Shown here: positions 347-54,085 of the stretch, piece by piece
Layout: every line of letters starts with the position of its first letter
How positions within the stretch are numbered: position 1 is the stretch's first letter
Source of the DNA: Escherichia coli O157:H7
GTDB taxonomy: Bacteria; Pseudomonadota; Gammaproteobacteria; Enterobacterales; Enterobacteriaceae
DNA length: 64,000 nucleotides
Strand: one strand, 5' to 3'
NCBI RefSeq assembly: GCF_013167455.1
Contig: NZ_CP038328.1
Position numbers and translations under genes: made by a program
Notes under the pieces: model-generated
Seen by the model: the letters and a program-made list of their open reading frames with translations, nothing else
The model's database searches: none
Told to the model about the DNA's origin: nothing

Positions 347-652
347 CCCTGAATAGTATAAAAAATGAACGATTACCGCGATCTGTTGAGCGGGTGACAG
401 TGCACATAGCGTTGTGCTAAAAATATTTTATATATTCACATTAATTATGTGATTTAAATTGCTAAAACTGACAAATATATATTCTAAATAACAACTGGAT
501 TATTCCTTAGCAATTAATGATTACATTGTAATAAATCATATTCTTTAGCGATTATTTCAGGCAGTGTTGTGCCGAATTAAGCAAGTAGTCAATTCGTTGT
601 GTATTTATTTATACAATGATTTCGGTGTTCTGGAATTTAATTAGAGGAATCT

Positions 653-1753
653 ATGCGAGGGAAAAAACGCATTGGGTTATTGTTTTTGCTGATAGCGGTT
701 GTGGTTGGTGGTGGCGGGTTCTTGATGGCGCAAAAAGCCTTACATAAAACGTCGGATACAGCATTTTGCCTTTCCTGCCACTCGATGAGTAAACCTTTTG
801 AGGAATATCAGGGAACTGTCCACTTTTCGAACCAGAAAGGGATACGTGCGGAATGTGCCGATTGCCATATTCCAAAGTCAGGGATGGATTATTTATTCGC
901 TAAATTAAAAGCATCTAAAGATATTTATCATGAATTTGTTAGCGGCAAAATAGACAGTGACGATAAGTTCGAAGCTCATCGCCAGGAAATGGCCGAAACA
1001 GTATGGAAAGAATTAAAAGCAACTGACTCTGCAACGTGCCGTAGTTGCCATTCTTTTGATGCCATGGATATTGCCTCGCAAAGTGAATCTGCGCAGAAAA
1101 TGCATAACAAAGCACAAAAGGGCGGCGAAACCTGTATCGATTGTCATAAAGGCATTGCCCATTTTCCGCCAGAAATAAAAATGGATGACAACGCGGCGCA
1201 TGAGCTGGAAAGTCAGGCCGCTACTTCAGTGACTAATGGCGCACATATTTATCCTTTCAAAACTTCTCGCATAGGCGAGCTGGCTACCGTGAATCCTGGT
1301 ACCGATCTCACCGTCGTTGATGCCAGTGGCAAACAGCCGATCGTTCTGTTGCAGGGTTATCAAATGCAGGGCAGTGAAAACACGCTCTACCTGGCGGCAG
1401 GTCAACGGCTGGCGCTAGCCACATTAAGTGAAGAAGGTATCAAGGCGCTCACGGTAAACGGGGAATGGCAGGCTGACGAATACGGCAATCAATGGCGTCA
1501 GGCGTCTTTACAGGGTGCGCTTACCGATCCCGCATTAGCGGACCGTAAACTGCTATGGCAATACGCTGAAAAACTTGACGATACCTATTGCGCTGGTTGT
1601 CATGCCCCTATTGCCGCCGACCATTACACCGTCAATGCGTGGCCGTCCATTGCCAAAGGAATGGGGGCACGAACCAGCATGAGCGAAAACGAACTGGACA
1701 TTTTAACGCGGTATTTCCAGTACAACGCCAAAGATATTACCGAGAAACAGTGA
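653..1753 (+). CDS. torY: Pentaheme c-type cytochrome TorY (NapC/NirT family), membrane-anchored
   Basis: 366-aa ORF; N-terminal hydrophobic anchor; five CxxCH motifs (CLSCH, CADCH, CRSCH, CIDCH, CAGCH). Confidence 0.9.
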
Positions 1754-11931: not shown

Positions 11932-12534
11932 TTATACCGCCTCGGTCAGTTCCGGCTGAGGCGTTTCCACTCCCTCCGCATGAATCAACACCAAACCTGG
12001 ATGATGCCACAAACTGGCTGGCGTGACGGTTTTACGCTCCCACGGAATAGAACCCAGGAACCAGAATTTCCAGAAAGTGAGTTTTGCATTCGGATTGCTA
12101 TTTAACAATTCTCCAAACGTCTCTATTTCACCCACCGGAATACATAGCGCTTCTTTATAAATATCAAAAACAAATTTTGAACAGAACTGGCGCGAAGATT
12201 CGTATTTAAAACCGGTGTGGTAAAGTTTGCGTAGCCGGGAGGGAACCTGTTCAACAATTCGTTGTTTTTGTTGTTCTGTCAGCCCAGCGTCTAATCGCTT
12301 TATAGCATAGCGTTGATTAGACGAACGTTTAATAAAACGAGATAGCGTGGTGATGGTTGAAAGGGGAACCCGGCTTTCTGCAACCAGGAAGTCTTCACCG
12401 TTATGACCGATAATGATCCCGACGTGATTACTCCAGCAATTTGATGCAGCTGATATTTGACCAAATAAGGCAGCACCTATACATGTAAAGACTTTATCTC
12501 CAATTTCATATTCAGCAGGGTAATTAATATTCAC
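11932..12534 (-). CDS. yebB: Uncharacterised protein YebB
   Basis: About 200 aa if started at GTG 12534 (reverse complement cac at 12532..12534); convergent with ruvC. Confidence 0.7.
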
Positions 12535-12741
12535 GTTGTCATTCCATTGAAATAGATACGAATATACGTAATAGCATAAAAAATTTATTTTTTCAGGAGG
12601 CGCAATGTATATTTTTATTACGCATTTCTTCACTGAATATGTAATATTAAAATATTTACTTCCAATATAACCTGTAGAATAAATTATACTGTGCCATTTT
12701 TCAGTTCATCGAGACACCTCGCAAGTTTTTTTCATCCTTCG

Positions 12742-12757
12742 CTGGATATCTATCCAG
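12742..12757 (+). promoter_or_regulatory. LexA (SOS) box upstream of ruvAB
   Basis: CTGGATATCTATCCAG, palindromic CTG-N10-CAG, 52 nt upstream of the ruvA start. Confidence 0.75.
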
Positions 12758-12808
12758 CATTTTTTTATCATACAGCATTATCTTTGATTCATTACGCAGG
12801 AGCGTCAT

Positions 12809-48785: not shown

Positions 48786-49577
48786 ATGGCTAACGCAGAT
48801 CTGGATAAACAGCCTGATTCTGTATCTTCCGTGCTAAAAGTTTTTGGCATTTTGCAGGCGCTGGGTGAAGAGCGCGAAATAGGGATAACCGAGCTGTCGC
48901 AGCGCGTCATGATGTCAAAAAGCACCGTTTATCGCTTTTTACAGACCATGAAAACCTTAGGTTATGTGGCGCAGGAAGGGGAGTCGGAGAAATATTCCCT
49001 GACCCTGAAATTGTTTGAACTGGGCGCTCGCGCGTTACAAAACGTCGATTTAATTCGTAGCGCAGATATCCAGATGCGTGAGATCTCCCGCCTGACCAAA
49101 GAAACTATCCACCTCGGCGCACTGGACGAAGACAGTATTGTTTACATTCACAAAATTGACTCTATGTACAATTTGCGCATGTATTCACGGATTGGGCGTC
49201 GTAATCCACTGTACAGCACCGCGATTGGTAAGGTACTGCTGGCATGGCGCGATCGCGATGAAGTGAAGCAAATTCTTGAGGGCGTGGAGTATAAACGCAG
49301 TACCGAGCGGACCATCACCAGTACAGAAGCGTTATTACCGGTTCTGGACCAGGTGCGCGAGCAGGGGTATGGCGAAGATAACGAAGAGCAGGAAGAAGGG
49401 CTGCGATGCATTGCGGTTCCGGTATTTGATCGCTTTGGCGTGGTCATTGCCGGTTTGAGCATCTCCTTCCCGACGTTGCGTTTCTCTGAAGAGCGTTTAC
49501 AGGAATATGTCGCAATGTTGCATACCGCAGCGCGCAAAATTTCTGCCCAAATGGGTTATCACGACTATCCGTTCTGA
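48786..49577 (+). CDS. kdgR: IclR-family transcriptional regulator KdgR
   Basis: 263-aa ORF; N-terminal HTH. Confidence 0.9.
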   Translation: MANADLDKQPDSVSSVLKVFGILQALGEEREIGITELSQRVMMSKSTVYRFLQTMKTLGYVAQEGESEKYSLTLKLFELGARALQNVDLIRSADIQMREISRLTKETIHLGALDEDSIVYIHKIDSMYNLRMYSRIGRRNPLYSTAIGKVLLAWRDRDEVKQILEGVEYKRSTERTITSTEALLPVLDQVREQGYGEDNEEQEEGLRCIAVPVFDRFGVVIAGLSISFPTLRFSEERLQEYVAMLHTAARKISAQMGYHDYPF

Positions 49578-49720: not shown

Positions 49721-49960
49721 TTAACCATTATCGACCACGATATTGCTTTTGCGTAACAGCGGGCAATCTGTTATCCCCAAAAAACCACTTTTAGTGTGCA
49801 AGTATTGTACCGTGCTGGTGCCTCTGGCAGTCAGATAGGTACATTGCAAACCTAATTCTGCGGCATTCTCTTTGCTTCCAATCAAAACGCCATATCCGCT
49901 GAGTAATAATCCTATCCATACCAGTGCTATCAGCATAACTGTGCGAATGATGAATCGCAT
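49721..49960 (-). CDS. yobH: Small protein YobH (signal/TM peptide)
   Basis: 79-aa ORF. Confidence 0.75.
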   Translation of the reverse strand: MRFIIRTVMLIALVWIGLLLSGYGVLIGSKENAAELGLQCTYLTARGTSTVQYLHTKSGFLGITDCPLLRKSNIVVDNG

Positions 49961-50119: not shown

Positions 50120-50263
50120 GTGAAAAAGTTTCGATGGGTCGTTTTGGTTGTCGTGGTGTTGGCTTGCTTGCTGCTTTGGGCGCAGGTATTCAACATGATG
50201 TGCGATCAGGATGTACAATTTTTCAGCGGAATTTGTGCCATTAACCAGTTTATCCCGTGGTGA
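50120..50263 (+). CDS. mgrB: MgrB, 47-aa membrane peptide (PhoQ feedback inhibitor); below the ORF-track size cutoff
   Basis: GTG start with GGAG SD 6 nt upstream; translation [47 protein letters not shown]. Confidence 0.85.
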
Positions 50264-50337
50264 TATCATTTTTTCAGCACTAGATTTTCTTCCTCTCCAG
50301 CAGTGGTAGAATAGCGCCTCTACTCAGAGGTGGTGAA

Positions 50338-50625
50338 ATGAACGAAGTTGTAAATTCAGGCGTGATGAACATTGCGTCTTTGGTTGTATCGGTGGTGGTT
50401 CTTCTTATCGGGCTCATCTTGTGGTTTTTTATTAATCGTGCCAGTTCTCGGACTAACGAACAGATTGAACTGCTTGAGGCGTTGCTGGATCAGCAAAAAC
50501 GTCAAAATGCACTGTTACGTCGTTTGTGCGAAGCAAACGAACCAGAGAAAGCAGATAAAAAGACTATTGAGAGTCAAAAATCGGTTGAAGACGAAGATAT
50601 TATTCGCCTGGTCGCCGAACGATAA
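50338..50625 (+). CDS. yebO: Small membrane protein YebO
   Basis: 95-aa ORF with N-terminal TM helix. Confidence 0.75.
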   Translation: MNEVVNSGVMNIASLVVSVVVLLIGLILWFFINRASSRTNEQIELLEALLDQQKRQNALLRRLCEANEPEKADKKTIESQKSVEDEDIIRLVAER

Positions 50626-50640
50626 TCCTTCCTCAATCTT

Positions 50641-50668
50641 GAGTAACCCCGTCGTTGAAGGGTTACTC
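50641..50668 (+). terminator. Hairpin after yebO (no clear U-run)
   Basis: gagtaaccc cgtcgttgaa gggttactc. Confidence 0.4.
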
Positions 50669-51293
50669 AATTCATCCTGATTATACGCACTGTCATGGTG
50701 CAACTGCTTCAAATTAAAACTCTGGTCTGACTTCAAATAATTATCATATTATTTATTTGCGTAACGGGATATCAGAAAAAGATATTTACCCCATTAATTT
50801 ATTAGGATGTTTACATCGGATTTGTGATTAAGCGTGGTATTATTTATTAGCGAAACGTTTCTCTCTTGATTTTTTTTGCTTATTCATCAATTTTTCTTAT
50901 TTTAAATTTCCAATTCCTTTGGGATTGACTTCTCTTTGGGGTGATTGAGAGCCGTTAACTGCCTGTTTTATGAGAAAAAGTGATATAACTTTTTATTCAT
51001 TGCATAGCAGAAAATGTGATATTGCACGCACTATGTAATAACTTCTCCCACTGACCTGGAACAACTGAACTTATTGAACTATGTTAGAAACTACGTCAGT
51101 TTAAGTATCTGCGGAACTGACAAGGTTAAGCACAATGATATATCGGCGCGTATTCCGTTGCATAAGTGTGCAAAAAAAGTGGAAGACGTATCGAGATTTG
51201 TGCGTCTGATCGAGACATGTTTAAAAATGGCTTGCCATAATTAACGTTGTATGTGATAACAGATTTCGGGTTAAACGAGGTACAGTTCTGTTT

Positions 51294-51437
51294 ATGTGTG
51301 GCATTTTCAGTAAAGAAGTCCTGAGTAAACACGTTGACGTTGAATACCGCTTCTCTGCCGAGCCTTATATTGGTGCCTCATGCAGTAATGTGTCAGTTTT
51401 ATCTATGTTATGCCTGCGGGCGAAGAAAACAATCTAA
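51294..51437 (+). CDS. yobF: YobF, 47-aa small protein in the cspC leader; below the ORF-track size cutoff
   Basis: ATG 51294 to TAA 51435..51437; translation [47 protein letters not shown]; 12 nt before cspC. Confidence 0.8.
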
Positions 51438-51449
51438 GGAATTTTTCAA

Positions 51450-51659
51450 ATGGCAAAGATTAAAGGTCAGGTTAAGTGGTTCAACGAGTCTAAAGGTTTT
51501 GGCTTCATTACTCCTGCTGATGGCAGCAAAGACGTGTTCGTACACTTCTCCGCTATCCAGGGTAATGGCTTCAAAACTCTGGCTGAAGGTCAGAACGTTG
51601 AGTTCGAAATTCAGGACGGCCAGAAAGGTCCGGCAGCTGTTAACGTAACAGCTATCTGA
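51450..51659 (+). CDS. cspC: Cold-shock-domain protein CspC
   Basis: 69 aa; RNP1 motif KGFGFI. Confidence 0.95.
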
Positions 51660-51703
51660 TCGAATCCACTGATCTGAAGTGTGAATACGCTTCAATCTCG
51701 CTA

Positions 51704-51732
51704 TAAAGCCTCGTCGAATGCGAGGCTTTTTA
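51704..51732 (+). terminator. Rho-independent terminator after cspC
   Basis: aaagcctcgtcgaatgcgaggcttttt. Confidence 0.75.
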
Positions 51733-51824
51733 CTATGCTTTATCTTCGCTCCTGGCGTTCGGATATTTGCCCGCCGCGTGATTCGCGTTACACTTGCGGC
51801 CTTTAGTATCCTGCCGGAGTTGTC

Positions 51825-52634
51825 ATGTCGTTTTCCTGTCCACTTTGCCATCAGCCTCTTACGCGTGAAAAAAACAGCTATATCTGTCCCCAACGACATC
51901 AGTTTGATATGGCGAAAGAAGGGTATGTCAATCTGCTGCCCGTTCAGCATAAACGGTCTCGTGATCCGGGCGACAGCGCGGAAATGATGCAAGCACGCCG
52001 CGCATTCTTAGATGCCGGACATTATCAGCCGCTGCGTGATGCAATTGTCGCCCAACTGCGTGAACGGCTTAATGAAAAGGCCACGGCGGTGCTGGATATT
52101 GGCTGTGGTGAAGGGTATTACACACACGCATTTGCCGATGCGTTGCCCGAAATCACCACGTTTGGTCTGGATGTTTCGAAGGTAGCGATAAAAGCGGCGG
52201 CGAAACGCTATCCGCAGGTCACTCTTTGTGTCGCTTCCAGCCACCGTTTGCCGTTTTCCGATACCAGTATGGACGCCATAATACGTATTTACGCGCCGTG
52301 TAAAGCAGAAGAATTAGCACGAGTAGTGAAGCCCGGCGGCTGGGTCATTACTGCCACGCCGGGACCGCGACATTTGATGGAGCTGAAGGGGCTGATTTAC
52401 AATGAAGTACATCTTCATGCACCTCATGCAGAACAACTGGAAGGTTTTACATTACAGAAGAGTGATGAGTTGTGTTATCCGATGCGTCTTCGCGGTGATG
52501 AAGCCGTCGCATTATTGCAGATGACGCCGTTTGCCTGGCGTGCGAAGCCAGAAGTCTGGCAAATACTGGCAGCAAAAGAAGTGTTCGACTGCCAGACGGA
52601 CTTTAATATTCACCTCTGGCAGCGTTCTTATTAA
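51825..52634 (+). CDS. rlmA: 23S rRNA m1G745 methyltransferase RlmA
   Basis: 269 aa; N-terminal Cys4 zinc motif (CPLC...CPQRH), SAM motif DIGCGEGY. Confidence 0.9.
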
Positions 52635-53197: not shown

Positions 53198-53435
53198 GAC
53201 AACGTCCTGACCGGGGTATCCATAAAACACATCATCGCCCCCAGCAAACATGCATACATGAACAACAAGCCGCGATGGGTTTTCGCGTTCATGCAGGCAT
53301 AGCGATTGATGTGCATATGGTCTCGCCTGACTGAAAGTCTTCAGTCCGTACGTGCCACGTTTTGCAACGAGTATGTTGACACGTACATTTCCGGAATCTG
53401 GAAATTGGCTACTCCCCAAATGAGGGCGCAACCTT
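53198..53435 (-). ncRNA. sraF: yybP-ykoY Mn2+ riboswitch (SraF) in the mntP 5' leader; 5' bound approximate
   Basis: Reverse complement of 53409..53418 reads GGGGAGUAGC, the hallmark yybP-ykoY motif; roughly 240-nt leader ahead of the mntP ATG. Confidence 0.7.
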
Positions 53436-53561
53436 AACATATTTTGAGAATATAAAACAACTGTTGGAATATATTATTTTATTGCTTTGTTGATAACGAT
53501 TTTCATTTAGATTTATATATCAATGAAACGTTATAATAAATAACAAATAAGGGAAGAGGTA

Positions 53562-53620
53562 ATATAGCCTAAGCTATGTCTGATTATTAAAAATACACTA
53601 AACATAGCTTTGGCTAAATT
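53562..53620. promoter_or_regulatory. Two candidate MntR operators upstream of the mntP promoter
   Basis: atatagcctaagctatgt (53562..53579) and aacatagctttggctaaa (53601..53618) resemble the MntR palindrome AACATAGC-N4-GCTATGTT. Confidence 0.55.
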
Positions 53621-53626
53621 AATAAC

Positions 53627-54085
53627 TCATTGAGTTGAAACGAGAAGTTTATAAATTCTTTCCAGATCGTCGATATTTCGAACGCGGATTAACAGCCGAC
53701 GCTGTTCTAATTGCATCACCAACACGCCATCTTCCGACAAGTTCATCGCTTTGATTCGGCTATATTCAATCCAGACATTGGCGAAGAAAAAACCTTTTTG
53801 TTTAAAGATGATCTTCGGAACGCGGATCCAGAATATATAAAAACCCATCAGAGCCAGTGCGCTTAATAACCATGTCGTTATTAACGCACCATGATTCGTG
53901 ACGTTGTTATAGATAAGAATGACAATCAATCCGACGAAGATAACGCTATCGATGCGACCACGCCGGAGCAAAGGAATTGCCAGCAGGGTGGGGCCGTTAC
54001 GGCGGGGCATGATGAACTGATCGTAGATCGCGAAGGCCAGGAGTGCGGCGATGAAAAGAATCAGTACCAGGTCCGTGATTGTCAT
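53627..54085 (-). CDS. yobD: DUF986 inner membrane protein YobD
   Basis: 152-aa ORF. Confidence 0.8.

Follow-up and report, generated by a model that had tools for sequence, protein, structure and literature searches.

The gap between yebO and yobF in Escherichia coli O157:H7 raises the question of whether this long AT-rich stretch is an untranslated leader of the yobF-cspC mRNA or DNA that lies upstream of its promoters. The window under study (the whole stretch of DNA that was analysed, 64,000 nucleotides) showed 100% identity to an E. coli O157:H7 chromosome and has the same layout as K-12. Of 5426 complete E. coli genomes, 5408 contain the stretch 50626-51449 at 95-100% identity, and it is 97.9% identical to K-12-sized genomes. 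Nothing essential sets it apart from the yobF-cspC operon of K-12, with which it shares the genes in the same order and at the same spacing as well as promoter hexamers and start site, the window being the O157:H7 allele. The GC content of the gap is 35.5%, versus 50.3% for the whole window, and reaches a minimum of 29% at 50707-51006; in a window-wide scan, equally AT-rich 668-nt segments made up 0.16% of all. The longest ORF lying wholly within the gap does not exceed 56 codons according to the ORF list, and the curated record of K-12 holds zero annotations there. The initial annotation had described a long, AT-rich and ORF-poor gap of this kind, followed by a 47-codon yobF ending 12 nt ahead of cspC, and both descriptions were borne out by the sequence and the coordinates (Table 1). 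The joint yobF-cspC mRNA that it had proposed corresponds to a published operon (PMC13162491, PMC8599858). The AT-rich gap is therefore a real and statistically unusual part of a well-studied operon, whose structure, promoters and sRNA targeting are already known.

Table 1. Genes and sequence features of the yebO-cspC region, in window positions
Feature	Positions	Strand	Details or basis
kdgR	48786-49577	+	
yobH	49721-49960	-	
mgrB	50120-50263	+	
yebO	50338-50625	+	
Gap yebO-yobF	50626-51293		668 bp
Lineage-specific AT-rich filler	50626-50845		first ~220 bp; mostly gap-aligned across 24 genera
Hairpin after yebO	50639-50670	+	11-bp stem (50639-50649 with 50660-50670), 10-nt loop
Palindrome AGCGAAACGTTTCTCT, candidate site for RbsR or other LacI-family protein	50849-50864		15/16 match to K-12 rbsD AGCGAAACGTTTCGCT
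Distal promoter-like module, apparently decayed	50873-50901	+	alignment
CRP site aaaTGTGAtattgcACGCAct	51008-51028		in vitro Footprint-seq (PMC12871828)
Conserved island CTGGAcGa..GAAnTTATTGAgCTATGgTAaAAA	51056-51095	+	~0.70 identity at 51066-51085, 24 genera
Conserved dyad TTGCA-N6-TGCAA	51159-51176		cGCATAAnTGTGCAg in other genera; alignment
Near-invariant promoter block: TTTGTGCGnnnGATCGAGACA, A-tract, two sigma-70 promoters	51195-51267	+	0.86-0.91 identity across genera
Sigma-54 -24-like element TGGCAAGCCATTTTTA / TGGCAAGCC	51222-51237	-	read from sequence
Short yobF 5' UTR	51268-51293	+	GGGUUAAA 51268-51275; ribosome-binding site GAGG 51277-51280
yobF	51294-51437	+	47 codons plus TAA; translated, conserved by base rather than codon
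yobF codons 16-29	51340-51378	+	complementary to cspC start region 51451-51485
Small hairpin GCC-ugcg-GGC	51412-51421	+	ahead of cspC ribosome-binding site; Rfam alignment
yobF TAA over cspC ribosome-binding site AAGGA, spacer, cspC ATG	51435-51452	+	AAGGA 51436-51440; 12-nt spacer
yobF-cspC spacer	51438-51449		12 nt
cspC	51450-51659	+	
rlmA	51825-52634	+	

Published transcription data locate the 5' end of the operon mRNA. A sigma-S ChIP-seq table (PMC4447067) lists the yobF start at old K-12 coordinate 1905641, which corresponds to position 51268 of the window, 26 nt 5' of the yobF ATG. The yobF promoter is given as TTGCCA-17-GATAAC in an RpoD genomic SELEX table (PMC3946193), and these hexamers were found at 51232-51237 and 51255-51260, the latter with a TG extension (TGtGATAAC) and with the start at 51268. 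A Salmonella yobF::sfgfp fusion built from the SalCom start site carries an insert that begins with GTTGTATGTGATAAC, whose 5' end maps to 51246, in agreement with a promoter-like site identified by a promoter scan (GAGACA-18-CATAAT, hexamers at 51212-51217 and 51236-51241, start at ~51246). A reading of the Salmonella start coordinate as a leader of 180-390 nt was rejected, as the cloning primer places the start proximally. Promoters yobFp1 and yobFp2 and an internal cspCp8 are described in a 2026 paper, and these are the EcoCyc/RegulonDB names for the promoters of the K-12 operon. According to these starts, which come from published tables and a primer and not from raw 5'-end data for the O157 strain, the leader of yobF spans 26-48 nt and that of cspC, which includes yobF, 182-204 nt. 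Since the published starts are situated just 5' of yobF, the 668 bp lie upstream of the promoters and do not form a leader, contrary to what the initial annotation had suggested; its proposal that cspC itself has a long leader holds. We consider it likely that 50626-51267 is upstream regulatory DNA, and that the true leader of cspC, constrained at the nucleotide level, extends from 51246 or 51268 to 51449. Placing the 668 bp upstream of the promoters averts a wrong model of the operon.

For the comparison among relatives, 80 Enterobacteriaceae loci were gathered via YobF, Serratia, Brenneria and Rouxiella were added, and a conservation profile was derived from an alignment of 24-25 genera. The order kdgR-yobH-mgrB-yebO-gap-yobF-cspC was kept throughout the Enterobacteriaceae loci. 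Within the gap, conservation was low from 50846 to 51190, with the exception of four islands (50846-50912, the CRP site at 51008-51028, 51056-51095 and 51160-51175), and identity rose to 0.86-0.99 from 51195 onward. The last ~100 bp (51195-51293), where the promoters are located, were nearly invariant across Enterobacterales, and the near invariance of the promoter, 5' UTR and yobF codons 1-38 extended even to Yersiniaceae and Pectobacteriaceae. On a shorter scale, O157 and K-12 differ within 50626-51449 by 17 substitutions or indels, every one of them in 50870-51120, and the comparison with E. albertii revealed heavy divergence at 50638-51137 and almost none from 51188. A start close to yobF together with a lack of conservation over 50700-51290 had been named as evidence against a long leader; the starts are indeed close to yobF, but that interval is not conservation-free, as it includes the islands and the near-invariant 51195-51293 region.

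Analysis of the first island revealed the existence of a palindrome with similarity to the sequence AGCGAAACGTTTCGCT that sits directly before the rbsD start codon in K-12, and which we take to be the operator of the LacI-family regulator RbsR. This 16-bp site was the sole match with three or fewer mismatches to the rbsD operator in the 64 kb, and the consensus sequences of PurR and Cra, considered as alternative owners, fit it far worse. Allowing up to four mismatches, the palindrome was kept in 67 of 82 loci, mostly 390-470 nt upstream of yobF. In this window it is located ~445 bp upstream of yobF, unlike the rbsD operator, which directly precedes the regulated gene, and in many genera its right half has degenerated. 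A search for another RbsR-like site that could support looping gave none, and no paper among those searched links RbsR to yobF or cspC; an RbsR SELEX study has been reported with five peaks, targets unlisted, and in one Salmonella screen insertions in rbsR, in cspC and in the yobF-cspC leader share a phenotype.

The same island contains a promoter-like module. In most other genera this module is found 42-48 nt past the palindrome and consists of TTGATG or TTGTGC, a spacer of 16-17 nt and CATTAT, followed by TTTGGTGCA; only E. coli and E. albertii have CTTATT in place of this second hexamer. A regular-expression search labelled CATTAT in 40 loci; in 18 more it matched CATTAA earlier, with CATTAT downstream in those inspected. 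From this arrangement we infer that the module would act as a promoter in other genera, and it looks decayed in the Escherichia lineage.

The remaining sites in the gap include several with published binding data. The CRP footprint reported at NC_000913.3 1907867 (PMC12871828) is centred at position 51018 of the window, and a CRP genomic SELEX also includes yobF; this site is conserved solely in the Escherichia-Salmonella-Citrobacter group. The island at 51056-51095 is a possible promoter, to judge from a -10-like TATGTT, in which case the CRP site would be near -73. The dyad at 51159-51176 gave a local hairpin z-score of -2.35. On the minus strand, the sigma-54-like element lacks the GC of the -12 element and overlaps the sigma-70 -35 hexamers; RpoN SELEX gave a peak at old coordinate 1905652 (~51257 in the window), which has been described as a repressive site (PMC8743547). 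With regard to the suggested H-NS sites, the spacer is flagged for H-NS in a genomic SELEX table (PMC3946193) and the GC content of the gap is 29-36%; the high-affinity motif TCGATAAATT is unenriched, with two 2-mismatch matches in 50626-51449.

We then consider the conservation of yobF itself, whose first, second and third codon positions showed 0.94, 0.96 and 0.94 identity to E. coli, respectively. At four-fold sites identity was 0.90 in yobF; it was 0.74 in cspC, a highly expressed gene, and ranged from 0.34 to 0.48 in kdgR, yobH, mgrB, yebO and rlmA. Against Serratia, Brenneria and Rouxiella, third positions were conserved at 84-87% in yobF and 60-69% in cspC. Among 66 unique sequences, the variant codons in yobF codons 1-38 comprised 7 synonymous and 41 nonsynonymous changes, with ~21% synonymous expected at random, and the signature of purifying selection on yobF (synonymous excess, relaxed third positions) was not found. 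The reading frame ends at codon 39 in many genera, at codon 27 in Yersinia and at codon 25 in one genus, and beyond codon 39 in others. Despite frameshifts caused by one-base indels, the GCC-loop-GGC hairpin, an A-rich tract and the ribosome-binding site of cspC persist, and 51435-51452 is conserved whatever the yobF reading frame. This codon-blind conservation indicates that the constraint acts on nucleotides. On the other hand, YobF has been detected as a protein, and the low-Mg phenotype of its deletion was complemented only with an intact start codon, so the constraint at the RNA level is not the whole story and the YobF peptide matters in low Mg.

The short 5' UTR of yobF was invariant in the 66 unique sequences, and its first eight nucleotides, GGGUUAAA, are perfectly complementary to the OxyS loop UUUAACCC. 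Repression of the operon by OxyS, which base-pairs close to the ribosome-binding site of yobF, has been shown (PMC10965054), yobF is a target of CyaR (PMC5861431), and regulation by OxyS and CyaR has been published for E. coli and Salmonella; these reports substantiate the idea that the leader is targeted by sRNAs. When the duplex energy of the whole OxyS molecule was computed, 66 of 300 shuffles were as good. The heat induction of YobF has been reported to be post-transcriptional.

Further along the leader, the middle of yobF is complementary to the start region of cspC (51340-51378 with 51451-51485), with a duplex energy of -27.3 kcal/mol versus -17.6 ± 3.2 for shuffles, 1 of 500 being as good. 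RNAalifold predicted the same helices, pairing mid-yobF with cspC codons 1-11. Across the 66 sequences, 99.8% of cells in this long-range helix were paired, the few variable positions being unpaired or wobble-keeping, and none of its 18 pairs had a compensatory change, a lack of covariation that follows from bases that never vary. In the whole RNAalifold structure a compensatory change was observed in 1 of 42 pairs (columns 152/164), in the GCC-ugcg-GGC hairpin, which is the sole helix with such a change. The leader as a whole was no more stable than shuffles (z = +0.86). Between 30 and 45 °C, the predicted unpaired probability in the longer transcript increased from 0.08 to 0.26 at the yobF ribosome-binding site and from 0.13 to 0.27 at the cspC AUG; in the shorter transcript that of the yobF ribosome-binding site stayed at ~0.55. 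Since cspC is translated much better than yobF, its start can be masked only weakly or transiently, if at all.

Other explanations of the locus have to be weighed against these data. Most of the 668 bp would be 5' UTR if many transcripts started far upstream or read through from mgrB-yebO, which we regard as improbable. The hairpin after yebO, described as a terminator in the initial annotation, is stable (-15.5 kcal/mol, z = -3.16), but it is followed by AAUUCAUCC and no U-tract and so departs from the pattern of an intrinsic terminator, and a terminator scan made no call at this site; in addition, the hairpin is unconserved in other genera. Read-through is thus possible, and the several RpoD peaks reported in the spacer (PMC3946193) make additional upstream promoters possible. 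The distal module conserved in other genera and the TATGTT hexamer, with the CRP site placed near -73, would also fit such transcripts. Against them stand the published starts at ~51246 and 51268, the divergence of 50626-51190 between E. coli and E. albertii, which is as fast as that of neutral sequence, the change of the distal -10 from CATTAT to CTTATT in Escherichia, and the fact that no Rfam family matches the gap. An independent small gene hidden in the gap on either strand, encoding an sRNA or a small protein, is the kind of element that the initial annotation had envisaged. In vitro run-off arrays gave a signal preferred by E-sigma70 for probe set IG1905616_1906284-f, which corresponds to the minus strand of the window, and also antisense to cspC, and several ORFs of 20-56 codons exist in the gap. 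However, none of the gap ORFs of 22, 24 and 56 codons was conserved in the cross-genus alignment, the Rfam search of the gap returned a chance-level match to psRNA2 at the yebO hairpin (E = 0.94), and the terminator-like site at 50911-50927, tried as a candidate, was unconserved with z = -0.73. As no conserved sRNA or small ORF emerged from these searches and the gap is blank in the curated record of K-12, such a gene is very unlikely.

The AT-rich part, above all 50626-50845, could alternatively be debris of gene loss silenced by H-NS and devoid of regulatory role, an explanation that we judge rather unlikely. In 33 related loci an ORF of 331-333 aa with a metallo-beta-lactamase fold separates yebO from yobF, and a gene of this fold is likewise found upstream of yobF in Serratia and Rouxiella. 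It is absent from Escherichia, Salmonella, Citrobacter and Klebsiella, whereas N-terminal fragments alone remain at three Buttiauxella loci. The alignment of 50626-50845 to gaps and the H-NS flag on the spacer point in the same direction. However, a tblastn search revealed no relic of the gene at the protein level in this gap, the H-NS high-affinity motif is unenriched, and the conserved islands downstream are left unexplained. Furthermore, ~525 bp of non-coding DNA still precede yobF in the genera that retain the hydrolase gene, and 682-1199 bp in Serratia, Brenneria and Rouxiella; as it is present even where the gene is kept, the long non-coding region upstream of yobF is a conserved trait. 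As for yobF, its conservation might simply reflect strong purifying selection on the peptide, in line with the detection of the protein, the near invariance of its first 26 residues and the need for an intact start codon in low Mg. This explanation has little chance of being right, since third positions equal the first two in conservation and four-fold sites exceed those of cspC (90% vs 74%), nonsynonymous variants predominate (41 to 7, with ~21% synonymous expected at random), and several genera have a frame that stops at codon 25, 27 or 39 with the downstream bases conserved.

Returning to upstream regulatory DNA followed by a nucleotide-constrained cspC leader as the preferred reading, the locus may operate as follows. 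The first ~220 bp would be AT-rich, lineage-specific filler at a place where many relatives carry the metallo-hydrolase gene between yebO and yobF. The fast-evolving middle would contain conserved protein-binding islands, namely the RbsR-type palindrome by the decayed promoter, the CRP site and two further blocks. Two overlapping sigma-70 promoters in the last ~100 bp would start RNA ~48 and 26 nt before yobF, giving a cspC leader with a weakly translated yobF, held constant at the RNA/DNA level, in which OxyS and CyaR would dock at the yobF ribosome-binding site. Mid-yobF would pair with the first 12 cspC codons, and temperature, RNA chaperones or ribosomes translating yobF might tune access to the cspC start via this pairing, in a manner resembling that of cspA mRNA. 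A broader proposal, which we put forward as doubtful, is that the YobF family is conserved mainly as an ultraconserved cis-acting cspC leader whose middle pairs with the cspC start and which works as a cspA-like switch with a weakly translated ORF embedded in it, and that the RbsR-type operator ties ribose and RbsR to CspC and, through CspC, to RpoS-dependent physiology. CspC is an abundant RNA chaperone that shapes stress responses, the regulation of Salmonella virulence and fitness in ageing colonies, in which yobF-cspC is a mutation hotspot. At stake are the way in which CspC levels are set and whether the Pfam 'protein family' YobF is an RNA element. Three results, namely that yobF is conserved in a codon-blind manner, that it is complementary to the start of cspC and that an RbsR-type operator is present, go beyond the existing annotation, and the loss of the neighbouring hydrolase gene offers a further lead.

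The gene cspC does not belong to the classic cold-shock genes, and its expression takes place at 37 °C. As in the cspA mRNA thermosensor, its csp coding region lies behind a leader longer than 150 nt, for which base pairing with the opening codons is predicted, and the GCC-ugcg-GGC hairpin aligns with the GCCgaaaGGC hairpin of the cspA 5' UTR model; unlike that of cspA, the cspC leader contains a translated ORF. The Rfam cspA model (RF01766) matched 51274-51734 with 136.9 bits versus a threshold of 78, the confident part being the coding region plus terminator. With regard to the thermosensor role raised by the initial annotation, the leader alone (51240-51452) gave no cspA match at E ≤ 10. 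Local alignment of the leader to the cspA 5' UTR was marginal (z = 2.5, 13 of 500 shuffles as good), and no similarity to the region upstream of cspE was found. That the cspC locus works like cspA is our hypothesis, and the leader is at most a candidate member of the family.

The leader also shares traits with other known systems. The match of GGGUUAAA to the OxyS loop UUUAACCC recalls the target sites at which the Hfq-dependent sRNAs OxyS and CyaR block a ribosome-binding site; here, repression acts on an upstream ORF that is poorly translated and probably reduces cspC as well, an effect that polarity, mRNA decay or structure might transmit. As in mgtL-mgtA and pyrL-pyrBI, a short ORF is located inside the leader of another gene, and ribosomes translating it might rearrange the leader structure; unlike in those operons, no terminator/antiterminator pair is evident in the yobF-cspC leader. 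The overlap of the yobF stop with the cspC ribosome-binding site is a feature of some genera only.

In many Enterobacteriaceae, the interval between yebO and yobF was found to hold an ORF with a metallo-beta-lactamase fold, which was present in 33 of the loci collected through YobF (L002 and 32 others). This ORF scores under the NCBIfam cut-offs; its homologs in Serratia and Rouxiella, located upstream of yobF, were assigned to Pfam Lactamase_B_2/B_3. Among the loci compared from Escherichia, Salmonella, Citrobacter and Klebsiella, no such ORF was found between yebO and yobF. N-terminal relics of the gene persist in three loci (L003, L017 and L029).

Comparison with complete E. coli genomes revealed that most of the stretch is missing from a few of them, and in at least one of these, NZ_CM132949.1, the alignment covers query positions 1-67 only. 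Its break at approximately window position 50692 suggests an insertion or deletion just past the yebO hairpin. With regard to base composition, three further 300-bp stretches of the window (395-694, 12486-12785 and 53360-53659) match the core of the yebO-yobF gap in AT-richness (29% GC).

Coordinates of ORFs in and around the yebO-cspC region
Feature	Size	Coordinates	Strand	Position	Family match
Metallo-beta-lactamase-fold ORF	331-333 aa	L002 1468-2469; L054 1483-2478 (further example)		between yebO and yobF	
FtsI/PBP3 paralog	581 aa	L004 3588-5333		between cspC and rlmA, Salmonella	NCBIfam PRK15105, 915 bits
Antisense ORF	194 codons	window 51408-51992	minus	antisense to cspC, reaching into rlmA start	

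The cspC-rlmA interval of E. coli spans only 165 bp (window 51660-51824). In most other loci and genera the spacing is about 2 kb, the same size as in the Salmonella locus L004, this being a comparison of size, with the gene content, an FtsI/PBP3 paralog, read in L004.

The long ORF opposite cspC may be an artefact of codon bias, or it may reflect a real antisense transcript. In a published in vitro run-off array, E-sigma70 was reported to transcribe the CFT073 ORF c2230, described as 'antisense of cspC', and also, from the strand that carries c2230, the gap between yebO and yobF.

The length of the yobF ORF differs between genera (about 24, 26, 38, 45-47 and 56 residues) because of early stops and one-base indels, as observed in columns 140-155 of alignment A2 (window about 51400-51415). 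For E. coli YobF a membrane helix is predicted, and the hydrophobic C-terminal part that would include it is absent from the short forms.

According to the literature, mgrB and yebO (window 50120-50625) form a single polycistronic mRNA that is strongly captured by the sRNA CyaR (339x and 93x); CyaR captures yobF too, and one sRNA thus touches both transcription units flanking the gap.
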